This document shows positions 25,028-62,593 of a stretch of DNA of 64,000 bases, piece after piece; within the stretch, counting starts at the first letter, position 1, and every line of letters begins with the position of its first letter. The notes beneath the pieces were generated by a model. The model was not told where the DNA came from, ran no database searches, and saw nothing but the letters and a program-made list of their open reading frames with translations. This stretch comes from Candidatus Nanoarchaeia archaeon (GTDB taxonomy: Archaea; Nanobdellota; Nanobdellia; UBA10117): positions 232 through 64,231 of the forward strand of contig JBMFNW010000001.1 in assembly GCA_049969975.1 (NCBI GenBank). The letters run 5' to 3'. The position numbers were made by a program, and so were the translations under genes.

Positions 25028-26038
25028 TTAGCTTTCGTCTTTAATACCTTCAGCTGTTAGCATAAATACTACTTCGCCTTCTGGTAAATGCGGGCTATCG
25101 ATTAAACGAGCAATTCTTTTTTCTCCTTTTGCTTTTCTTAAATAAATTCGATACGTTGAGCCGTGGCCCACAATATTGCCTCCTATCGCTTGTGTTGGGT
25201 TGCCAAAAAAGATTGCAGGATTTGCCATGACTTGATTTGTGACAAACACAGCCAAATTATGCGTATCAGCAAGTTTTTGCAGCGTGTGTATGTGACGATT
25301 TAGCCTCTGCTGCCTGTCTGCCAAATTTCCTCTACCCGCATATTCAGAACGGAATAATGCTGTGAGCGAATCTACAACAATTAATCTAATGTTTAAATTT
25401 TCTTTCCTAATTGCTTCATCAATTTTTTCAGCAAGAAGCATTTGATGGTCTGAACTATATGCTCGCGCCACTTTTATGTTTTGTAAAGTCTTAATTGGGT
25501 CTAGATTTTGTGCAAGTGCAAGCTGCCTTATTCTTTCAGGTCTAAATGTTCCCTCAGTATCAATAAATGCTACTTGGCCTTCTAAACCTCCTCGTTCTTT
25601 AGGAAGTTGAACGTTTACCGAAAGTTGAAATGCTAGTTGTGTTTTTGAACTTCCAAACTCTCCAAATGCTTCGGTAATTGCTCTAGTTTCTATGCCGCCA
25701 CCCAAAAGACCGTCAAGCACTTTACTTCCAGTTGTAATTCTTTCTGTTTTTTCACGCTCTTTTAAAACTTCATCGCCTGTTTTGAAACCTATTTTAATAG
25801 CTGAGCGAGCAATTTGAATGGCTTTTAAAGCAGTTTCTTTTGAAAGTTCTGCAGCCTCTGCTAATAGCTGTGGCGATGCTACTGCTAGCGACACAAGATC
25901 TGTTATTCCTGCAGCATAAAGCTTTTCTGCAGTTGCTTTGCTTATGCCCGGCAAATCTTCTATTTTTTTAATTTCGCTTTCTTCAACAATTTCATTTTTT
26001 TCATCATTTTCATCAGTTTTTTTCACCATTTTACTCAT
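25028..26038 (-). CDS. radA: DNA repair and recombination protein RadA
   Basis: N-terminal HhH ([20 protein letters not shown]), Walker [10 protein letters not shown] and a RecA/Rad51 core. 336 aa. Confidence 0.85.
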
Positions 26039-27020
26039 TTTGTTTTATTTGCCCATTTAATTTACTCATTAATTCTACTATAATATCTTTTGGATTTGGA
26101 TTTGGCTGTATTTCAAATATTGCAAATTCAAGTCTGTCTGAAATTTTACTTTTGCGAACAGTACCTTTAGCAAGAATTGTTTTTCCTAAAAGAGCATGTT
26201 GTAAGTTTTCCAAAATTTCCAAATCAGGCTTACATTCGATTCCAGTGCAGGACCATAGCAGCTCAGCGTTTTTACCAAATGCGCTGGCTCTGATCACTCC
26301 AGTGCCATCGTCTAAGTAAAAACTTATTAAAAGTCTTTTTTGTGGATCTATTACTTTATGTATTGGACAAACAAAACCTTCTGGTGCAAGGACTGCTTTT
26401 TTGCCACAAGTTGGACAAATAGGGAACCATTTTGGCGGGAATATTTTTACTATTTCAGCAAGAATTTCTGCTTTTTGACCTAAAGCCAAGTCCGAAATTG
26501 TTTTTTTTGGAATAAGGCATTCTGCAGAGCTGTCTAAAAAGGATATAATAGTACGATTTCCTGCGTGAAGTTCGTTCATACCAGCAGCATTTTGTTTAAC
26601 TTGTGCATATTTTATTTTTATTTTGCCTTTTATTTTACCTTCTTTTAGCAAATTTACTTTATCATCCCACAAAACAACTCGTATTTCACCACTTTCATCA
26701 CGAAGTAAAAAAGAGCCAACTTCTTTAGCTTCGTTTCCTTTTGTGTAAGGAATAATGCGGAATGTTCTATCAACATAGCCTTCAACATCTACGAGGCCTA
26801 TGCCAGGAACAAGATCAGAAATTTTCCAAGTTTTGCTTTGTGGTTGATTTAATAAGTTTATTCCAAGTTCTGATGCTACTATAAATGCAGCACCTTCTTC
26901 AGAAACAAGCCCTTTGAGTTCAGATATTTTTGCTTGTATTTTTTCTTTTATTTCGCTTTCTGGCAAGCCGGATTCTTCTCTTATTTTTTCAATTATTTTG
27001 CTTATTGGTATTTTAAGCAT
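26031..27020 (-). CDS. OB-fold ssDNA-binding protein (RPA-like) with C-terminal zinc ribbon
   Basis: OB-fold-like beta-rich middle region and CPTCGKK...CPIHK zinc ribbon. Adjacent to radA. Identity tentative. Confidence 0.4.
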
Positions 27021-27095
27021 TAGTTTTAAGTTTTGAGTAAGAAATATAAGTTTTTGTTTAGTGAACAAAGCATTTGTAAAAATAAAGCGTAAAAA

Positions 27096-28436
27096 TTAAA
27101 GTGCTAACCCATAAGCTCGAAGCGTTTCTCTTATTGCTGTTGGATCCTCACCACCATGCCAAGACATTTTTGGCCTGACCCGCATTGGAAATATTCTCTC
27201 TAATTTGTCATCTATGAGGACCGCAGTGCCTTTGTCTGGTGGAAGCTCGTCTATGTATTTTTGAATTGCGTATGGCAAATATGTTGCAGCTATTAAATTT
27301 AGAGCTTCTATATCTATTTTTGCGGTTAGTCTATGAGATATTACAATATCTGCTTGGGTCATTACATCTGTATGAATTTTGCCTGGCTGTTGTGTTGCTA
27401 AAACAAGCGAAATTCCTGGCTGCCTGCCTTCTCTTAAGATTTTTATGAGCGGTTCTGAAGCCAAAGTTTGTTTTTCAGTTTCTTTTGGTAAAAATTCGTG
27501 TGCTTCGTCAATGAAAATCCAAACAAGTGGAGCTTTGGCTTCTGTAACTGCTGCTTCTTCGCCAAATATAAAACCGCCTTCGGAAATTAATTTAATTTCT
27601 TCAGCTTTTCTTGCAGCCATTCTTTGCTCAAGTATTTTTTTGCATACCAATCCAATTACAAGCGCTTTAATACGATCTCCACCTTCAAGTTGTGCATACG
27701 CCGAAAGATCTAAAATTGTCGTCGTACCGCCCCTAAATAGTTCTGTAATTGGTGTACCTTCTTTCTTAAATAAACCCCATCTTTTAGCTGCTTGAAATCT
27801 ATTTTCAACAATATTTTTTTCTTCAGTGCTCGATCTAGAATCTTGTTTAGCACACTCAATAAGTTCATCGATATCAAAATCTTCTCCATATTTTTCTCGA
27901 GCAGCCTCTAATGCGCGATCGATGAGAGTTCCAGGACCAGATATTAAATCAAGGTCAAAAATTTCACACCAACTATCTGCACTTACTTCTGAAGGTTTTA
28001 TTGCAAACGGAAAATCTACAGGCACGCCTTGGCTTTGATAATTTTCATAAAGGCCGAAAGGAACATATACTAAAGGTGAATAGTTTTTCGGTCTTAAACC
28101 CCATTCTCGAAGCAATGCATCATCTCTGTAATTAGGGTATTTCATTGTCCAAAAAATACCCATCGTATCAAAAATTAAGCCCGCAATGTTTGTAGAAATA
28201 TTTGGAGGCAAGTCAACAATACCTTCAGCAATAACTGAAAGCGTGTAGCTTTTACCACTCCCTCGCTTGCCACAAACCAAAATAACGTGCGGATTTGCAA
28301 CATCTAAATAAATTGGATTTGCAAGGCTTACTGTGCTGTCAAAGCTTACATAGTTTTTACCTAAGAAAATTGTACCTGCAAGGCCAAGCTTTTCTAGTTG
28401 TTTTGGTGTCCTGCCAGCAACAATCTCATAAGCCAT
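27096..28436 (-). CDS. HerA/FtsK-superfamily P-loop ATPase (DUF87-like)
   Basis: Walker A VCGKRGSGKS and a late LATQQP block. The likely start MAYEIVAG is at 28436. The track ORF runs on to 28688, across a plus-strand tRNA-Ser, which cannot be real. Confidence 0.55.
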   Translation of the reverse strand: MAYEIVAGRTPKQLEKLGLAGTIFLGKNYVSFDSTVSLANPIYLDVANPHVILVCGKRGSGKSYTLSVIAEGIVDLPPNISTNIAGLIFDTMGIFWTMKYPNYRDDALLREWGLRPKNYSPLVYVPFGLYENYQSQGVPVDFPFAIKPSEVSADSWCEIFDLDLISGPGTLIDRALEAAREKYGEDFDIDELIECAKQDSRSSTEEKNIVENRFQAAKRWGLFKKEGTPITELFRGGTTTILDLSAYAQLEGGDRIKALVIGLVCKKILEQRMAARKAEEIKLISEGGFIFGEEAAVTEAKAPLVWIFIDEAHEFLPKETEKQTLASEPLIKILREGRQPGISLVLATQQPGKIHTDVMTQADIVISHRLTAKIDIEALNLIAATYLPYAIQKYIDELPPDKGTAVLIDDKLERIFPMRVRPKMSWHGGEDPTAIRETLRAYGLAL

Positions 28437-28496
28437 GTGTAAAGCAAACAAGTCCAAAATAAAAGGCTTTTTAAGATCAATTTTAATTAAAATTCT

Positions 28497-28580
28497 GCCG
28501 GCGTGGCAGAACCAGGTAATGCGTACGCCTCGAGAGCGTATGCCCGCAAGGGCTTCCAGGTTCAAATCCTGGCGCCGGCG
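28497..28580 (+). tRNA. tRNA-Ser (CGA), type II
   Basis: Acceptor GCCGGCG/CGCCGGC with discriminator G. Anticodon stem TACGC/GCGTA with loop CTCGAGA. Long variable arm GCCCGCAAGGGC. Canonical T-arm CCAGG-TTCAAAT-CCTGG. Confidence 0.7.
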
Positions 28581-28643
28581 CTTCAGCACAATGGTTTTAA
28601 AGAAAAGAGCAAAGATTTTAAATAAAGATTTTCTATAATTAAT

Positions 28644-28859
28644 ATGGCCAAAGAAGTTGTTGAAAAAAAAGTTAAGTTTTTTGGGCACGAAATTGTGCTG
28701 ACTTTTGTTGGTTCTTTAGTAATAACTTTCGGTATGTTGCTAATGTCTTTCGAGATTCAGCCCATGCTTTTGACTTGGCTTTTAGCTACAATGTTTGTTT
28801 GGCTAGGCCTTTTGGTATTTCTGTTCCCAATAATTAGAAAAATAGAAAAACTGCTTTAG
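28644..28859 (+). CDS. Small membrane protein (hypothetical)
   Basis: 71 aa with two hydrophobic helices. Confidence 0.35.
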   Translation: MAKEVVEKKVKFFGHEIVLTFVGSLVITFGMLLMSFEIQPMLLTWLLATMFVWLGLLVFLFPIIRKIEKLL

Positions 28860-34036: not shown

Positions 34037-34141
34037 TGGGCCGGGGCGGATTCGAACCGCCGACCTGCCGCTGGCTTAGACAGAAGCTTGCGCTTCTGCG
34101 TCATATAAGACGGCCGCTCCACCAGGCTAAGCTACCGGCCC
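34037..34141 (-). tRNA. tRNA-Ile (UAU) with 31-nt canonical intron (intron 34073..34103)
   Basis: Acceptor GGGCCGG/CCGGCCC. T-arm GGCGG-TTCGAAT-CCGCC. Variable loop AGGTC. Anticodon stem GCCGU/GCGGC. Exon loop CUUAUA|..|A. Between positions 37 and 38 lies a 31-nt insert that folds into an hBHBh' motif, with a central 4-bp helix CUUA/UAAG and two 3-nt bulges with splice sites after the 2nd bulge nucleotide, plus an internal 6-7 bp hairpin (AGAAGC...GCUUCU). Confidence 0.6.
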
Positions 34142-41871: not shown

Positions 41872-43351
41872 GTTCCCGTTGATCCTGCGGGAGAGTACCG
41901 CTAGTTGGGTCCGATTAAGACATGCAAGTCTACTGGGGAGATTACATCAAACCGGTGGCGTAAGGCTGCGTAACACGTTGAGAACCTACCCTTGGGAAGG
42001 GAATAACCTCGCGAAAGTGAGGCTAATTCCCTATAGAAGACGGACCTTGGAAGAGCCCGTCTTTGAAATCCTTCGGGGCCCAAGGATGGCTCAGCGGCAG
42101 ATTAGGCAGTTGGTGGTGTAATGGACCACCAAACCTGTGATCTGTAGGGGCCATGAGAGTGGGAGCCTCCAGAGGCACACTGAGAAAAGGGTGCCAGCCC
42201 TACGGGGTGCAGCAGTCGCGAAACCTTCGCAATGCGCGAAAGCGTGACGAGGGGACCCAACGTGCCAGCTCTTTGAGTTGGCTTTTGCCATGTTTTAAAA
42301 GCATGGCGAATAAGTGAGTGGGTAAGACCGGTGCCAGCCGCCGCGGTAATCCCGGCGCCACAAGTGGTACTCACGTTTATTGGGTCTAAAGCATCCGTAG
42401 CCGTCTTGCAAAGTTTCCTGTGAAATCCGGCAGCTTGACTGTCGGGCGGGCAGGAAATACTTGCAAGATAGAGAGCGGGAGAAGTGGAGGGAATGCCCCG
42501 GGGAGCGGTAAAATGTTTTAATCCGGGGTGGACCACCGATGGCGAAGGCACTCCACTAGAACGCGTCTGACGGTGAGGGATGAAAGCTAGGGGAGCAAAA
42601 GGGATTAGATACCCCTGTAGTCCTAGCCGTAAACGCTGCCCGTTTGATGTGTGGTATTGTATAAATACCATGCGTCGTAGCGAAGGCGTTGAACGGGCCA
42701 CCTGGGGAGTACGGCCGCAAGACTGAAACTTAAAGGAATAGGCGGGGGAACACACAAGGGGTGTATGCTGCGGCTCAATTGGATTCAACGCCCGGAACCT
42801 TACCAGCAGCGACTGCAGAATGAAGGTCCTCCTGAATGGGGCACTCGACACGCAGAGAGGTGGTGCATGGCCGTCGTCAGCTCGTGCCGTGAGGTGTTCT
42901 GTTAAGTCAGAGAACGAGCGAGACCTGCGTCCTTAATTGCTATCCTTTTCTTGCGAAAGCTTGAAAAGGAGCACAATAAGGAGACTGCCGGCGTAAGCCG
43001 GAGGAAGGTGCAGGCAACGATAGGTCTGTATGCCCCGAATCTGCTGGGCTGCACGCGGCATCCATTGGTTGAGAGAACGAGCTGCAACCCCGAAAGGGGA
43101 AGCCAATCTCTTAATCTCAACCATGTTCGGATCGAGGACTGCAACTCGTCCTCGTGAAGGCGAAATCCCTAGTACACGTGTTTTAGCATAGCACGTGGAA
43201 TACGTCCCTGTTCCTTGCACTCACTGCCTGTCAACTCAACCGAGTCGGGTCAAAGTGAGGTTTTCGCTGAGGAAATCGAACTTTGGCTCGGCAAGGCGGG
43301 GTAAGTCAACACAAGGTATCTGTAGGGGAACCTGCAGATGGATCACCTCCT
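41872..43351 (+). rRNA. rrs: 16S rRNA
   Basis: 5' TTCCCGTTGATCCTGCGGGAG and 3' GGATCACCTCCT. Internal GTGCCAGCCGCCGCGGTAA. Flanked by an 18-bp perfect inverted repeat (41793..41810 vs 43351..43368), which is the processing stem. Confidence 0.9.
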
Positions 43352-43420
43352 ATACTCTTATCTTCTCCAATTGGACCGATTAAGCATAACTCTTTTAAAC
43401 GCCTGTCAAAAGAAAAAATC

Positions 43421-43504
43421 GGGCCGGTAGATCAATAGTAGATCGCCGCCCTTGCAATTTCACAAGACAGGCGGAGGCTTCGGGTGCGAATCCCGACCGG
43501 TCCA
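43421..43504 (+). tRNA. tRNA-Ala (UGC) with 12-nt intron (43457..43468) in the 16S-23S spacer
   Basis: Acceptor GGGCCGG/CCGGTCC including the G3:U70 Ala identity pair. Anticodon stem CCGCC/GGCGG. Loop CTTGCA[ATTTCACAAGAC]A, where the intron 3' part CAAG pairs with exon CTTG to give a relaxed BHB. T-loop TGCGAAT (G at position 55). Confidence 0.7.
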
Positions 43505-43575
43505 TTTACTGTATTGAGGTTCCCAATCGAATGATGGGGACTGAGCAGTTTTCATGTTTGAAAACTGTGCATAGT

Positions 43576-46483
43576 TGGCCTGTTGAAGAGAATAGATGCC
43601 TTTTGGTGGATAGCTTGGCTTGAGAAGCCGAGGAAGGCCGTGGCAAGCTGCGATAAGCACGAGGTAGGCGCATGCAGCCTTTGAACTCGTGATTGCCGAA
43701 TGGGTCTTCCTTCTTTCTTCGGAAAGAGATCCGTAAGGATCGGGAACCCGCTGAATTGAAACATCTTAGTAAGCGGAGGAAAAGAAACCAAATGGGATGC
43801 CGTTAGTAGGGGCGACCGAAAGCGGCAAAGGGCGTACCGAATTCCTTTTGGTAACAAAAGGAAGATGTGGGCTGTCCAACAACCAGTTTAGACTTGCGAA
43901 GTGCTTTGGAAAAAGCCGCCGAAGAGGGTGATAGCCCCGTAGCAACATCTAAGCTGGTTGGGGCAGCAAAGAGTAGCACAAGTTGGGATTCTTGTGCGAA
44001 GATGGGTGTCAACAACATCCAACCCTAAATACTTCTCAAGACCGATAGCGCACTAGTACCGTGAGGGAATGCTGAAAAGCTCCCATGGCAGGGAGTGAAA
44101 AGAGCTTGAAACCAAAAGGCGATAGTACGACGCGGCCCCAAGGGGTTGCGTCATCCGTTTTGAAAAACGGGCCGGCGAGTTTAGCTTTGTGGCGAGCTTA
44201 ACCTGACAAAGGGGAAGCGTAGCGAAAGCAAGAGGCCCGCAGCGTTGAGCGAGGGGCGGCGTGTGCTCGCGCTATAGTCACAAGGCTAAGACCTGAAGCC
44301 TGACGAGCTAAGCCAGGCCATGCTGAAGCTCGGGTAAAACCGAGTGGAGGGCAGAAGAGGTTCTGCACATACGCGTTCTTCTGAGCCTGGTTTAGGAGTG
44401 ATATGCTCATCGAGTCAGGCGCTAGCTGGTTCCCACAGAAACAAGCCAAAGTTTGGCCTCGACAGAGCCGTCGCAAGGGGTAGAGTACAGATTGCGGAAG
44501 CAGGGGCTTCGGCTTCGTTCCGCTGTCTAACTCCGAATCCTTGCGAGGCGTAGAAGTCGGGAGTAAGTAGGCGCGGTTAAGCTGCGCAGGCGAAAGGGAA
44601 ACAACCCCGCGAATGGTTAAGGCCCTAAAGAGCTAGCTGAGTGCAAAGAAGGATTCTTCTGTCGTAGACAGCTGGGACGTAGGCTTAGAAGCAGCCATCG
44701 TCTAAGCAACGCGTAACAGCGGACCAGTTGAGACAGAAGGGTCTGAAAATGGACGGGGCTAAGCTAGCCGCCGATACCATTCTCTCCCAAAAGGGAAGAG
44801 GTATGTGGGCGCAGCCATAGAGCAGAAGCATGCTCGTGAGAGTGTGTGGATCTATGGCTGATGTGAATGCCGGTGTAAGTAGAAGCTAAGTATGGTGAAA
44901 AACCATACCAGCGAAAGGGCCAGGTTTTCTCGGCACTGCTCGTCAACCGAGAGTTAGCCGGTCCTAAGTTTGGTGCCTAAGCGTGCCAAACGAAAGGGAA
45001 GTCCGTTAATATTCGGACGCTATCAAGCCACATGCGGCGACGCAAGGTTGCTTGCCGACGCTTTGGGATAGGCTAAGGCGTACCGTCGTGCGCTTTAAGC
45101 ACCGAAGTCTGGGGAATTCTGTAATGGATAGAACCAGATGAAAGTGCGAATAGCACTCGCAAGAGTGTTTAGCTGATTCCTGGAGCCGGTGAAAAGGCAA
45201 GCAATCGTGGCTTGATAACCGTACTCAGAACCGACACAGGTGACCCTGGCCGAGTAAGCCGAGCTGTGACGGGTTGACCCCTCCCAAGGGAACTCGGCAA
45301 ATTAGCCGCGTATCTTCGGTAGAAGCGGTCTCTGCGGCATTGCTGTGAAATATCGGTGGTGCTGCAGGGTGCAATGACAAGGGGGATCCGACTGTTTAAC
45401 AAAAACGTAGCTAAGCGCAAAGTCTAAACGGCTTTGTACGCTTGGTGATTCCTGCCCAGTACGGTTGCCTGAAACTCCGGTCCAACGGAGCTAAGGGCCC
45501 GTAAACGGCGGAGGTAACTCTGACCTTCTTAAGGTAGCGAAATGCCTTGTCACTTAATTGGTGACGTGCATGAAGGGCTAACGAGATCCCCACTGTCCCT
45601 GGGAGGAACCCGACGAATTTTCTCTTCTGGCGAACAGGCCAGAGACCTCCAGCGGGAAATGAAGACCCCGTAGACCTTTACTGCAGCCTGTTGCTGCGGT
45701 TTGTTTGGCGCTGCATAGAGTAGCTGGGACCCGTTTGCAGTTGCTTCTTTCGGGAAGCAATGAGGGGAAAGTGTAACACCAGCCTTCTCTAAGCAGATCG
45801 CTTACCCTTATGGGGACACCTTCAGGTGGGCAGTTTTGCTGGGGCGGCAACCTTCCGAAAAGATATCGGAAGGATCTAATGATCGGCTCACCAGGCTTGG
45901 AAACCCTGGGTAGAGGAAAAGGCTAAAAGCCGGTCTGACTCGGTCCTAAACAGCGAGGGTCCGAGACGCGAAAGCGAGGCCTAGCGAACATAGGTGTCAC
46001 TTTTGTTGAGCGCCCTATCTGATAGAAAAGGTACCTCGGGGATAACTGAGTCGTGCCGAGCAAGAGTACACATCGACCTCGGCGCTTGCTTCTTCGCTGT
46101 CGGCTTTGCCTAGCTTGGCTGTGTACAAGCAGCCAAGAGTGCAGGTGTTCACTGATTAAAAGGCATCATGAGCTGGGTTCACAACGTCGTGAGACAGTTG
46201 GTGTACAATCTGCTGGAGGTGCATAGGGTCTGAGGAGAAGGCAGTTTAAGTACGAAAGGAACAAACTGTCCGCGCCTCTGGTGTACGGGCTATCTGATAA
46301 GGTAGGCCCGGCAGCTACGCGCGTCGGGATAAGCTCTGAAGGCATCTAAGAGCGAAGCCCGCCCCAAAAAGAGACCCTAGGAGCTACCCTAGATGAGGGT
46401 GTTGATAGGACTGGGGTGTACGAGCCAAGGTAACGAGGCTTTCAGCCCGCAGTTACTAATCGCTCCGCTTCTCTAAACAGGCC
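43576..46483 (+). rRNA. rrl: 23S rRNA
   Basis: 5' region GGTGGATAGCTTGGC...GAAGGCCGTGGCAAGCTGCGATAAGC. The 3' region ends ...AGTTACTAATCGCTCCGCTTCTCTAAACAGGCC, which pairs with the 5' GGCCTGTTGAAGAGAA (helix 1). Boundaries about +/-15 nt. Confidence 0.85.
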
Positions 46484-46639
46484 AATTATGCATAGTTTTC
46501 ACTTTTCTCATTATTTTCTCATAATTTTTTTCTTAATTTTATTCTCAACAATTAAAATTCCCAAAACAAGTTTGTCTAAAGCAAATTTCTTTAAAGCACA
46601 AAAGCAAATTTTTTAAATTATGTTTTTAATTCTAAATTT

Positions 46640-46900
46640 GGAGACAAAGCCAGCAAACTTTCGCAGCAAAAGCTGTGAGGAAAGTCTGCCCATCCAAAAG
46701 CTCAAAAGGTCTTGGAAAGGACCAGGCAAACACAGAAATACACAAACTGCGTCGCAGGATGATATATTGACTTTGGCGCAGATTTGGTGAAAATGTTTGC
46801 CAGAGCGGATGCAAGTCTAAAAGACGCTAAGTAGAATGTTTGCACAACCTTCCTTCAATTGAAGGGGTTGCAACAGAAGGCAGCTTATGGCTTTGTCTCC
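46640..46900 (+). ncRNA. rnpB: RNase P RNA (reduced, about 261 nt)
   Basis: Perfect 12-bp terminal helix (GGAGACAAAGCC ... GGCTTTGTCTCC). P4 halves GAGGAAAGTCTGCCC and ACAGAAGGCAGCTTATGGC match universal RNase P CR-I and CR-V. Lies 157 nt downstream of the 23S. Confidence 0.75.
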
Positions 46901-56632: not shown

Positions 56633-57592
56633 TTATTTTTGTTCAAGTTCTGAAAGAACTTTTATGCGCTTTAGCATATTTGGATGTGTTGACATCAATT
56701 CTAAAAGCTTATCTAAAGTGCTTAATTTTACAGTTTTTTCTCTAAGAATCGCAAGTTCTTCTGGTTCGAGGACACCAGATTTATCAACATCCAGCTGAGA
56801 AAGTTCAACAATTTCATCGTGTGCTTTGCTTACATCATTTAGGAAAAAAGCTTTTGCACCTTCTGCTTGTTTTAGTATTGGTTTTGGTAATTTTGCACTG
56901 CTTTTGACAAGTTTGAATAATGCAGACGCCAAGCTGTGCGGAGCATTACCAAGCTCAACCGAGCCAAAGTCTGCATAATACTCTCTAATTCTTGAAATGT
57001 AAAGAACTAGAAGATTTGTTATAAAATATATTAAAAAAGCCAGCACACCAACCAATACAGTATTTCCCTTTCTATCTCTAGCCCAAATCATGCTTTGAGC
57101 AACGTACCAAGCAAGCATTGGAACTAAAGAAAGCAAAGTAATTATTGCTACATCTCTATGTTTTAAATGTGAAATTTCATGTCCCAAAACCGCTTCTAGT
57201 TCTTTTTTGTCTAAAAGATTTAAAATACCTTCGGTAACGCAAACTCTACCATCTGATTTCCAACGCCCAAATGCAAATGCATTTGGTATTTTCAAGGCAG
57301 AAATTCCTATTTTTGGCTTAGGTATGCCTGCTTTTTTAGCAAGTCTTTCAACTATTTTGTGAAGTTCTGGTTCTTGCTTTTCATCAACATACTTCACTTG
57401 CATAGTTAGCTCAATAATTTTTGGACCAGCAAGGTATTGTAAGCCAATAATTGCAATGGCAAGGATTCCATAAAACAAAAAGTTTGTAATGCCCAATAAA
57501 TAGCTAATTGCCGATACAAAAGCATAAACAATTGCAAAAAATAGCGCTACTATTAAATACATTCTAATTTTAAGCCAAATTACTGATGGCAT
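56633..57592 (-). CDS. htpX: M48-family zinc metalloprotease (HtpX-like)
   Basis: HEISHLKHRD (HExxH) between TM helices. 319 aa. Confidence 0.8.
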   Translation of the reverse strand: MPSVIWLKIRMYLIVALFFAIVYAFVSAISYLLGITNFLFYGILAIAIIGLQYLAGPKIIELTMQVKYVDEKQEPELHKIVERLAKKAGIPKPKIGISALKIPNAFAFGRWKSDGRVCVTEGILNLLDKKELEAVLGHEISHLKHRDVAIITLLSLVPMLAWYVAQSMIWARDRKGNTVLVGVLAFLIYFITNLLVLYISRIREYYADFGSVELGNAPHSLASALFKLVKSSAKLPKPILKQAEGAKAFFLNDVSKAHDEIVELSQLDVDKSGVLEPEELAILREKTVKLSTLDKLLELMSTHPNMLKRIKVLSELEQK

Positions 57593-57657: not shown

Positions 57658-58308
57658 TTATCCACAATATTTTTGATACCTGCAAGGTGTGCATTTTTCA
57701 GAATACAAAGGTTTTGGTTCTTTTCCACGCAAAATTTCTTCGATACTCGTGACAGTGTTTTCAACTAAATTTTTAGCATCGTCTGTATACTTTTCCTGCC
57801 AAAATATTTGTTTACTGTTAATATCTCTGATTGAACCTACTAAAGGTTTATTTGGTTCTAGTTTTTTATTTTCAAAAATATCTTTTGTAAAAGCATAGCA
57901 ATAGCCCCAAACTTGTAATTTTTGGCCAGGCCAAATTTGATTTTTAATTGGCTTATCCTCAACAATTAAAATTTCATTTGGAGAAATTTGTATTTCATCA
58001 ATTTTTCCTTTTAACTTTTTACTTTCAACTTCTAAATCCCTTATAATCACTGTGCGGCTTTGAGCTAGTTCAAAAGCTTCTTCTAAAGACATCGGTATTG
58101 CTTGAGCATAATGTTCTAAATCTAAAGCTTTATGAGCTGCTTGGCCAGCCAAAATTTCTGTTGTTGGTTTTGCTTTTATACCACGTACAAATTTCAAATA
58201 AATTTGTCTTTTACAATACTCGTGCTCAGAAAGTGCACTGATAGGGATTTTATACTCGCCATCTAATATTTTTTGTGCATATGTTTTAAGCATTAATTTT
58301 TTTCGCAA
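57658..58308 (-). CDS. Cas4-like/RecB-family PD-(D/E)xK nuclease with Fe-S Cys cluster (DUF83)
   Basis: N-terminal SALSEHEYCKRQIYLKF (first cluster Cys in a Cas4-like context). A D...IVEDKP core. C-terminal CTPCRYQKYC (Cx2Cx5C). 216 aa. No cas genes or CRISPR nearby. Confidence 0.55.
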   Translation of the reverse strand: MRKKLMLKTYAQKILDGEYKIPISALSEHEYCKRQIYLKFVRGIKAKPTTEILAGQAAHKALDLEHYAQAIPMSLEEAFELAQSRTVIIRDLEVESKKLKGKIDEIQISPNEILIVEDKPIKNQIWPGQKLQVWGYCYAFTKDIFENKKLEPNKPLVGSIRDINSKQIFWQEKYTDDAKNLVENTVTSIEEILRGKEPKPLYSEKCTPCRYQKYCG

Positions 58309-58882
58309 GAAAATCTAAAATAGTTTTCGGTATGTATTTCAAAGTTATAAACAGCGGAGTTTCTGGATAAATAACAACTTTCTTTTCTTTTACAGCATAA
58401 AATAAATATAATTTATTTTGTTCGAAGAGAATTATAATTACTTTTGCAAAAACCACGCTTCTGATTTCTGTTGTATCTTGAATAAAAAAATTCGAAGTAG
58501 GTATGCCTGAAATGTTTGTATATGCTTGGACGGGATTTTGAGAATTAAAAACGGCAAGCTCGTTTAGCTGAGTTGCATTTGGTAAATCTTCAAAAATTTT
58601 AGTATCAAATATTATGATTTTATAATATTTTTTTGTCAAATCTTTTGACTTCCAATTTTCAACTTCAGCCAGCTCTGTGCTGTTGAGAAAATTTGGTGAA
58701 GCATTAAAAATAAATTCAAAGCCAGCCACAACTTTGCTTTTATTGCTTAGCAAAAAAAGATTTTTTTCTGTTTGAATTTTTTCTTTAAATTCCATTAAAT
58801 CTTTATATACTAAGCCCACCCAAAGTCCTGCCAAAGCAAAGATTAGGAGAGCAGATATTACTAGAGCAGTTCCGAGTTTCAT
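58286..58882 (-). CDS. Secreted or membrane-anchored hypothetical protein
   Basis: N-terminal signal-anchor helix MKLGTALVISALLIFALAGLWV. 198 aa. Confidence 0.4.
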   Translation of the reverse strand: MKLGTALVISALLIFALAGLWVGLVYKDLMEFKEKIQTEKNLFLLSNKSKVVAGFEFIFNASPNFLNSTELAEVENWKSKDLTKKYYKIIIFDTKIFEDLPNATQLNELAVFNSQNPVQAYTNISGIPTSNFFIQDTTEIRSVVFAKVIIILFEQNKLYLFYAVKEKKVVIYPETPLFITLKYIPKTILDFLAKKINA

Positions 58883-61310: not shown

Positions 61311-62159
61311 ATGGATTTTTTGAGAAAAAAAGCACTCATTTTTTTGCTACTAATGTTTATTTTATTTATTTTTATAATTGTTTTAATTCCTGAAAAAGAA
61401 AAAAGTTGTGATGAGCTTATTTCTGAAATTCCTAAATTAATTGAACAAGCGAAAGCAGCAAGGGCATTTTATGTTAGTAATGTTATTGATGGCGATACAA
61501 TTGTTTTGGATAATGGTAAAAAAGTTAGGTTGCTTGGAATTAATGCGCCAGAAAAAGACATGCCTTTTTATGATTCTGCCAAAAATTTCACCAAAAATTT
61601 AACATTAGGTAAAAAAGTCTATTTGGTAAGAGATTCTTCTGACAAAGATCTCTATGGACGATCTTTAAGATATGTTTTTACAGAAGATGTTTTTGTAAAT
61701 GCAGAATTACTAAAGCAAGGTTTGGCAACACTTTTCATTGTTGAGCCAAATACAAAATATGCTAAGTTATTTTCTTGTTTGGAAGAGTATGCTAGGCAAA
61801 ACAAACTTTCTATTTGGTCTAAAACAAAACATTACTCTTTAAATATCACAGTAAATTTTGATGCCCCTGGCAGCGATTCTGAAAATTTGAATGGCGAATT
61901 TGTTCAAATTTGGAATTTTGGAACAGAACCAATAAATCTTACAGGTTGGATTATAAAAGATGCAGCCAAACATATTTACAAGTTTGAAAATTTTGTTTTG
62001 CTTCCAAATAAAAAAGTAACCATTTATACTGGTTTTGGAAATGATTCTGATGAAGAATTATATTGGAATTCAGAAGCGCCTATTTGGAACAATGATGGTG
62101 ACACTGCATATTTATTTGATAATGAAGGTAATTTAGTTGCTTGGTTAACTTTTCCCTAA
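61311..62159 (+). CDS. Membrane-anchored staphylococcal-nuclease (SNase/thermonuclease)-like protein with C-terminal lamin-tail domain
   Basis: N-terminal TM. SNase motifs (VIDGDTIVL; RLLGINAPE; YGRSLRYVF). C-terminal LTD (NLNGEFVQIWNFGTEPINLTGWIIKD...TIYTG). Confidence 0.7.
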   Translation: MDFLRKKALIFLLLMFILFIFIIVLIPEKEKSCDELISEIPKLIEQAKAARAFYVSNVIDGDTIVLDNGKKVRLLGINAPEKDMPFYDSAKNFTKNLTLGKKVYLVRDSSDKDLYGRSLRYVFTEDVFVNAELLKQGLATLFIVEPNTKYAKLFSCLEEYARQNKLSIWSKTKHYSLNITVNFDAPGSDSENLNGEFVQIWNFGTEPINLTGWIIKDAAKHIYKFENFVLLPNKKVTIYTGFGNDSDEELYWNSEAPIWNNDGDTAYLFDNEGNLVAWLTFP

Positions 62160-62476: not shown

Positions 62477-62593
62477 TGCTAGCAGCTTTCCACCCTTCCC
62501 GCCTGTTCGGCAGTACAAAGTGGAACGTTGCTGGGATTCACTTCCGTGTTCGGAATGGGTACGGGTCTTGCCCCAGCACTTTGACCGCTAGCA
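62477..62593 (-). rRNA. rrf: 5S rRNA
   Basis: Reverse complement contains CCCATTCCGAACACGGAAGTGAA (loop C/helix III signature). The 5' UGCUAGC pairs with the 3' GCUAGCA (helix I). TATA-like ATATTTAAAAAT lies about 25 nt upstream on the minus strand. Ends +/-3 nt. Confidence 0.8.

Follow-up and report, generated by a model that had tools for sequence, protein, structure and literature searches.

A probable stand-alone Cas4-family nuclease encoded in the core chromosome of a Nanoarchaeia archaeon

A cas4-like gene that stands apart from any CRISPR-cas locus raises the question of whether its product is a genuine Cas4 nuclease and, if so, which function it may serve in a cell where no adaptation module lies beside it. 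Such a gene had been proposed in a sequence-only reading of a 64-kb stretch of DNA (the window, i.e. the whole stretch that was analysed), on the minus strand at 57658..58308, and this open reading frame (ORF) is present. The window belongs to the core chromosome of a Nanoarchaeia (DPANN) archaeon. Its RNA genes are a 16S-tRNA-23S operon, RNase P RNA, 5S rRNA, and tRNAs, and its protein genes include those of the thermosome, Topo I/III, CDC48, PolB, CysRS, SerRS, a TyrRS/TrpRS-class synthetase, ArgRS, and ThrRS, as well as TldD/PmbA, Topo VI A and B, RadA, a HerA-like ATPase, rubrerythrin, aIF2-beta, and others. The GC content outside the rRNA genes is ~0.32-0.38, with no anomaly at the cas4 locus. 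A scan for sigma-70 promoters and terminators, which says little in an archaeon, gave counts near those of shuffled controls.

Some other features of the window are recorded here in their own right. RNase P RNA lies ~160 nt downstream of the 16S-tRNA-23S operon (41872-46898, plus strand), and the 5S rRNA gene (62477-62592, minus strand) is unlinked, ~16 kb off and on the opposite strand. A tRNA match at 34037-34141 (minus strand) spans 105 nt, which suggests an intron. A co-directional cluster on the minus strand (25028-28688) encodes the HerA-like ATPase (27096-28688), an OB-fold protein (26031-27068), and RadA (25028-26038); NurA, Mre11, and Rad50 were not recognised among the window ORFs scanned. 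The PADLOC model "HEase" (homing endonuclease) was matched by one of the 61 large ORFs (E = 5.7e-99) and DpdF by one (E = 2.6e-39), and a Pfam scan of 31 window ORFs gave no LAGLIDADG-type match.

Read from a TTG codon, the longest ORF at the cas4 locus encodes 216 aa. The NCBI call is 211 aa long and starts with the ATG at 58293, and an equivalent Met opens the closest homologues (M-SYAQDILRG in P0002 and MYKTYAQKILDG in L086). Therefore, the ATG at 58293 was taken as the start, and, judging from these N-termini, the true coding sequence (CDS) is most likely 57658..58293 and does not begin with the TTG at 58308. The ORF is a real gene and not a chance reading frame, since it matches Pfam Cas_Cas4 (E = 1.2e-10), has 173 relatives in a HMMER search, and carries motif residues that are invariant in an alignment of 50 homologues. 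An identical protein, in unchanged gene order, occurs in two GenBank metagenome-assembled genomes labelled Candidatus Nanoarchaeia, and its NCBI name is "CRISPR-associated protein Cas4". The features of the locus are as follows; residue numbers refer to the 211-aa form, and conservation was judged in the 50-sequence alignment.

57658..58293, minus strand: solo-cas4 CDS, 211 aa plus stop (ORF, profiles, NCBI call, homologue N-termini)
58213..58215, minus strand: Cys27, predicted N-terminal Fe-S ligand, in the motif SEHEYCKRQIYL (invariant in 50 homologues; translation checked)
58132..58134, minus strand: His54, conserved histidine (invariant)
57997..57999, minus strand: Asp99, RecB motif II, in GKIDEI / GKIDEIQI (invariant)
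57952..57960, minus strand: Glu112-Asp113-Lys114, RecB motif III (D/E)xK, in VEDKP (alignment and translation)
57901..57915, minus strand: Gln127 to Tyr131, QhxxY motif, QVWGY (Gln127 and Tyr131 invariant)
57664..57693, minus strand: Cys201-x2-Cys204-x5-Cys210 (CTPCRYQKYC), three predicted C-terminal Fe-S ligands (all invariant)
58286..58882, minus strand: 198-aa membrane-anchored protein, given for context and not a proven partner (lineage-limited synteny)

The sequence-only reading had described an N-terminal SE..YCKRQ.YL motif, an EDK nuclease core, and a C-terminal Cx2Cx5C, and every one of these was found in the translation. In its fuller form the N-terminal motif is ALSEHEYCKRQI, which contains Cys27. 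Residues C27, H54, G96, D99, K114, Q127, Y131, C201, C204, and C210 are invariant in the 50 homologues, and E100, D113, R85, E86, and W165 are nearly so. Within RecB motif III, the lysine (Lys114) never varies, at least 90% of the sequences have Asp113, and position 112 is taken by D or E. From its position in the Cas4 fold, His54 may correspond to His62 of SSO0001, which is a metal ligand (as quoted in PMC12501428). Overall, the window protein keeps the full RecB-type catalytic set together with the four-cysteine Fe-S staple.

Profile searches point to the same family. The protein scores 42.1 bits with Pfam Cas_Cas4 (PF01930; gathering cut-off 22.7) over model positions 4-158 of 160, and twelve Cas4-type models of PADLOC match at E <= 1e-5, with up to 62.6 bits. 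The NCBIfam cas4 equivalog TIGR00372 is covered from position 1 to 178 of 180 at 62.6 bits, a marginal miss, by 2.4 bits, of its equivalog cut-off of 65. Pfam PDDEXK_1 matches at 32 bits. Pfam NERD and Exo5 remain below threshold (Exo5 insignificant, E = 0.44), as do the two profiles for Csa1, the type I-A Cas4 (Pfam PF06023, 20.2 vs 27; TIGR01896, 21.1 vs 103). The Cas4/DUF83 architecture that had been proposed thus agrees with the profiles, of which the Cas4 models (PF01930, TIGR00372, and several of PADLOC) are the best matches, and an unrelated PD-(D/E)xK family without the cysteine tetrad does not account for the protein: Cas4 ranks first, the tetrad and the RecB residues are conserved, and the predicted fold is closest to Cas4.

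The AF2 model, built on the 50-sequence alignment, has a pLDDT of 95.3 and a pTM of 0.91. Its top Foldseek matches in the PDB are the type I-C Cas4 (PDB code: 8d3l; TM 0.72) and the type I-G Cas4/Cas1 fusion (PDB code: 7mi4; TM 0.73); the Cas4 chains 8d3l_I, 8d3l_J, and 7mi4_A all match at TM 0.69-0.73 with a probability of 1.00. Lower in rank follow Exo5, ACE1, SSO0001, AdnAB, Dna2, and MGME1. Phmmer gave no significant match among the PDB sequences, and a profile search of the same sequences gave marginal matches only (Exo5, 7lw7, on top with E = 1.1e-5; 4r5q with E = 4e-5). Since sequence comparison with the PDB is marginal, the link to solved Cas4 structures rests on fold comparison. Taken together, a profile match over the full domain, the RecB residues with the histidine, the four cysteines, and the predicted Cas4 fold are those of the Cas4 family, and it is very likely that the window protein is a Cas4-family PD-(D/E)xK nuclease.

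Relatives of the protein are few. When 1.84 billion representative proteins were searched exhaustively with HMMER, the 173 relatives mentioned above were returned at E <= 1e-3, with 82 of them at E <= 1e-10 and the best non-self match 45% identical, and a word-indexed homologue search of a 5.8-billion-cluster database returned only the protein itself. Judged from these searches, the lineage of the window protein is a sparse, divergent Cas4 branch. In addition, a pattern derived from a 5-sequence alignment guided a scan of one genome per GTDB species, which yielded 80 loci at 27-41% identity to the window Cas4. This sample is limited by the pattern and biased, with many Methanobrevibacter and without the window's own species among the loci recovered; it comprises Dehalococcoidia and other Chloroflexota, Aenigmatarchaeota, Altiarchaeota, Hodarchaeota, Promethearchaeota, Sericytochromatia, and the many Methanobrevibacter. 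The closest relatives among the GTDB species representatives are bacterial: Dehalococcoidia, with up to 41% identity, stand ahead of the Aenigmatarchaeota and Asgard homologues (L003, L004, L005, L009, L010, and other Chloroflexota loci). Sequence similarity of this kind is consistent with a cross-domain transfer of solo-cas4. Some longer relatives from the HMMER search (P0036, P0088, P0098, P0105, and P0125) carry the Cas4 domain fused to RNase_H_2 (PF13482), RNase HI-like RVT_3, HhH or HTH modules, or C-terminal TPR repeats; a Cas1 fusion was found in none of the longer relatives.

It had been claimed that the gene is an orphan in the window, i.e. that neither a CRISPR array nor a cas operon is present, and both absences were borne out. 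Two repeat finders and a k-mer scan detected no CRISPR array in the 64 kb. With PADLOC, no Cas family besides the Cas4 matches of this protein was found in the 61 ORFs of at least 100 aa, among the 25 of 39 matched families listed for them, or in 16 smaller ORFs; for the window, the case that other Cas genes are absent is therefore strong but not complete. The orphan status also extends to the relatives: no convincing CRISPR array lies within 10 kb of the ~80 loci by k-mer scan, and Cas1 and Cas2 are absent among the neighbour matches listed for them. Four weak 3-copy k-mer matches (in L012, L070, L071, and L079) were dismissed as non-CRISPR by copy number and sequence, e.g. a tRNA-like repeat in L012.

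The neighbours of cas4 in the window are those that had been named, a secreted protein and HtpX. Downstream on the same strand lies an M48/HtpX peptidase gene (56633..57592), followed by a MiaB-like radical-SAM enzyme; upstream, also on the same strand, is the 198-aa protein with an N-terminal hydrophobic anchor, whose stop codon overlaps the ATG of cas4 by 8 nt (ATGCTTAA). Three divergent genomes, those of the window, L083, and L086, share the order ThrRS / membrane protein / cas4 / htpX / radical-SAM gene. In L083 the identities to the window proteins are 45% for Cas4, 67% for HtpX, 70% for ThrRS, and 35% for the membrane protein; in L086, which holds the best Cas4 relative from another genome, they are 54% for Cas4, 79% for HtpX, and 43% for the membrane protein. 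Cas4 therefore diverges faster (45-54% identity) than HtpX and ThrRS (67-79%), and its catalytic and Cys residues are all kept. The conserved gene order in divergent genomes argues for cas4 as a chromosomal gene that is stably and vertically inherited within this Nanoarchaeia lineage.

The membrane protein is ~200-220 aa long in the two related genomes (L083:5160-5825 and L086:3159-3818), where its stop codon overlaps or abuts the cas4 start. It has no Pfam match and only two relatives in the database, its AF2 model (pLDDT 67) is too weak to interpret, and clustering of the neighbours at 78 loci showed it to be absent beside the Cas4 relatives of other phyla. The same all-against-all clustering, which took in five genes to either side of cas4, revealed no neighbour common to different lineages or phyla, and a conserved functional partner at the level of the family was rejected on this result. 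Profile scans of 117 immediate neighbours gave mostly housekeeping genes, e.g. RNA polymerase Rpb3 in Aenigmatarchaeota and ribosomal protein S2.

Three kinds of Cas4 have been separated by Hudaiberdiev et al. (2017, PMC5704561). Housekeeping synteny in three genomes, a uniform GC content, and the lack of relatives in phages, plasmids, and IMG/VR place the window gene with the solo-Cas4 in their sense. The signs of a CAS-Cas4 were not seen, as the 64-kb window has no adjoining cas1 or cas2 and no array and the longer relatives have no Cas1 fusion, nor were those of an MGE-Cas4, as the locus is not in a virus, provirus, or plasmid. Cas4 is encoded by ~90% of archaeal genomes, and solo-cas4 is over-represented in small-genome archaea and in bacteria without CRISPR-Cas; in most DPANN, the Cas4 encoded is a solo-Cas4 rather than a CRISPR-associated one (PMC5704561). 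Furthermore, solo-cas4 is mainly inherited vertically, and some DPANN solo-Cas4 group with bacterial homologues (PMC5704561). A cultured Nanobdellota archaeon likewise has cas4 only and no CRISPR (PMC11420986). The window protein resembles these archaeal solo-Cas4 in its PF01930/COG1468 membership, its position outside cas loci and mobile elements, its small-genome archaeal host, its vertical inheritance, and its relatives shared with bacteria (Dehalococcoidia, 41%), and differs in nothing essential, although its lineage is sparse and divergent. Solo-Cas4 without CRISPR-Cas being the published norm for DPANN, the gene is ordinary and not a new system.

Comparison with individual enzymes gives a similar picture. 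The type I-C Cas4 and the type I-G Cas4/Cas1 fusion share the Fe-S/RecB-nuclease architecture (TM 0.72-0.73 over ~212-217 aligned columns); however, the identity is only 16-20%, and the window gene has no Cas1, Cas2, or CRISPR array nearby, so that nothing points to PAM-dependent trimming of prespacers by this protein. SSO0001 (PDB code: 4ic1), SSO1391, and Pcal_0546 (PDB code: 4r5q) have the same fold and four cysteines, and their His/Asp/Glu metal ligands and (D/E)xK lysine follow one another as in the window protein, but they superpose more weakly (TM ~0.5), with 4r5q marginal also in the profile-to-sequence match (E = 4e-5). The Solo-Cas4 of Methanosarcina mazei, a [4Fe-4S] DNase that depends on Mn or Mg (PMC12501428), is likewise a stand-alone archaeal Cas4-family Fe-S nuclease without cas context; it was reported to lack the RecB motif (PMC12501428), whereas the window protein keeps D99, E112-x-K114, and QxxxY. 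Exo5 (PDB code: 7lw7), which ranks fifth by fold, and the Argonaute-associated ACE1 (PDB codes: 9iab, 9iac) are Fe-S PD-(D/E)xK nucleases of the same superfamily; unlike the window protein, they are longer, and the window locus has no Argonaute gene, the Exo5 Pfam match falls short of significance, and ACE1 aligns with a TM of 0.3-0.4.

By analogy with these enzymes, a mechanism can be proposed. The product would be a ~24-kDa RecB-type PD-(D/E)xK nuclease, in which an Fe-S cluster held by Cys27 and the C-terminal Cx2Cx5C would staple the fold; the cluster would have a structural role, stabilising the fold. A Mn2+ or Mg2+ ion, held by His54, Asp99, Glu112, and a backbone carbonyl, may hydrolyse DNA together with Lys114. 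The activity would likely be that of a 5'->3' exonuclease or an endonuclease on single-stranded ends and flaps. The catalytic mechanism, the polarity, and the role of the Fe-S cluster are extrapolated from SSO0001, SSO1391, Pcal_0546, and the M. mazei Solo-Cas4; for characterised Cas4 enzymes, a metal-dependent 5'->3' exonuclease/endonuclease mechanism is summarised in PMC3466216 and PMC12501428.

In the cell, such an enzyme may process DNA ends independently of CRISPR, for repair and recombination in a reduced genome. As a whole, a stand-alone Cas4-family Fe-S nuclease with CRISPR-independent DNA-end processing in repair or recombination is the best explanation of the locus and appears highly probable. 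That the cellular role is one of repair, as opposed to defence, comes from context and analogy, and we would give it about an even chance. In favour of a repair role are the vertical inheritance of the gene, its synteny with housekeeping genes, and the fusions of relatives to nuclease domains. The RadA and HerA genes of the window lie ~30 kb from cas4, and nothing ties cas4 directly to either.

The first alternative is a CRISPR-independent defence nuclease, which, by itself or together with a partner, would break down or process invading DNA in the manner of ACE1. The Cas4-family ACE1 acts with long-A Argonautes in cyanobacteria. ACE1 structures are among the fold matches of the window protein, but these matches are poor, as given above. 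The faster divergence of cas4 relative to its neighbours would fit a defence-type gene, and a C5 DNA methylase and a CARF-domain protein lie within two genes of two different relatives; however, neither an Argonaute nor restriction-modification or other defence genes adjoin cas4 in the window or at the syntenic loci, and no defence neighbour is conserved across the 78 loci. A defence role of solo-Cas4 was left open by Hudaiberdiev et al., who found restriction-modification genes adjacent in some DPANN genomes (PMC5704561), but the solo-cas4 of M. mazei showed no response to a virus challenge in the conditions used (PMC12501428). On balance, a defence nuclease is conceivable but rather unlikely here.

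Genes of the staphylococcal-nuclease (SNase) type recur near solo-cas4. In ~29 Methanobrevibacter loci (L037:9890-11086, L070:9890-11091, L043:9929-11076, and ~26 more), the solo-cas4 homologue is followed, in the same orientation and at a distance of -4 to +9 nt, by the gene of a ~154-aa SNase homologue that has a membrane anchor at its N-terminus, and the pair looks like an operon. At another locus (L019:1090-2381), the SNase gene is divergent and lies 92 nt upstream of the cas4 homologue. This pairing is not mentioned in the Cas4 phylogenomics paper of 2017 (PMC5704561). In the window, a gene at 61311-62159 (plus strand), 3 kb from cas4, encodes a membrane-anchored nuclease with SNase and lamin-tail (LTD) domains (PADLOC C3a212 "SNc+LTD", 7.9e-27), and SNase-LTD genes also adjoin ThrRS in L001 and in two related Nanoarchaeia loci, L083 and L084.

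These arrangements suggest a second alternative, in which a cytoplasmic Cas4 acts downstream of membrane-anchored partners (the 198-aa protein, which would be co-translated with it, and an SNase-type nuclease) and digests imported host or environmental DNA for nucleotide salvage. The overlap of the membrane-protein stop with the cas4 start, in a pair kept in three lineages, the Methanobrevibacter pairs, and the SNase-LTD gene near cas4 in the window and in L083 and L084 would all agree with such a role. However, synteny extends over the whole block, with ThrRS, HtpX, and the radical-SAM gene included, and adjacency within the lineage therefore says little on function; moreover, the membrane protein is lacking beside Cas4 in other phyla, and the SNase gene of the window is on the other strand with three genes between. 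DNA scavenging by the window protein therefore appears quite improbable. In a broader form, this solo-Cas4 clade might be the cytoplasmic half of a two-compartment module for DNA degradation and salvage, its membrane-anchored partner being, in Nanoarchaeia, the ORFan membrane protein that overlaps the cas4 start, with the SNase-LTD gene nearby, and in many Methanobrevibacter the SNase encoded directly downstream in the apparent operon; the broader form, too, has little likelihood.

A third alternative is a genuine CRISPR adaptation Cas4 that acts in trans, with cas1-cas2 and an array elsewhere in the genome. The NCBI name would suggest this, the protein's fold is matched best by Cas4 subunits from Cas4-Cas1-Cas2 complexes, and the 64 kb covered here are one part of the genome. 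Against it stand the ~80 relatives, none of which has an array within 10 kb or a listed Cas1 or Cas2 neighbour, the TIGR00372 score below the equivalog cut-off, and the stable housekeeping synteny. Furthermore, CAS-cas4 travels almost exclusively with the adaptation module, and DPANN are mostly without CRISPR-Cas (PMC5704561). A trans-acting adaptation role is therefore extremely unlikely.

Finally, an MGE-Cas4 that was captured from, or belongs to, a virus, provirus, or other mobile element is scarcely credible and was rejected: archaeal viruses often recruit Cas4 genes (PMC5704561) and the protein matches phrog_1706 weakly (E = 3.5e-5), but no integrase, capsid, or other mobile-element gene is found at the locus, the GC content is uniform, the gene occupies the same site between ThrRS and HtpX in three divergent genomes, and searches of 50,697 phage records and 72,556 plasmids, like a pattern scan across IMG/VR, brought up no relative. 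The link to viral or defence islands hinted at in the sequence-only reading did not hold, given the conserved core-chromosome synteny and, at the sensitivity used, the lack of phage, plasmid, and IMG/VR relatives.

With regard to the family, the Methanobrevibacter cas4-SNase pair is a more testable lead on the role of solo-Cas4 than the window gene itself. If the salvage role were true, the solo-Cas4 of small-genome archaea would process imported or extracellular DNA and would not repair the chromosome. As a Cas4-family nuclease that stands alone and probably processes DNA ends independently of CRISPR, the window protein adds one more divergent DPANN member to the solo-Cas4 class described in 2017, and GenBank already gives it the label Cas4. 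It is of modest value, as a clean example: in contrast to the M. mazei enzyme, it keeps the complete RecB catalytic set, and its gene sits in a stable housekeeping synteny, so that it could serve as a test case for the role of solo-Cas4 in organisms without CRISPR.
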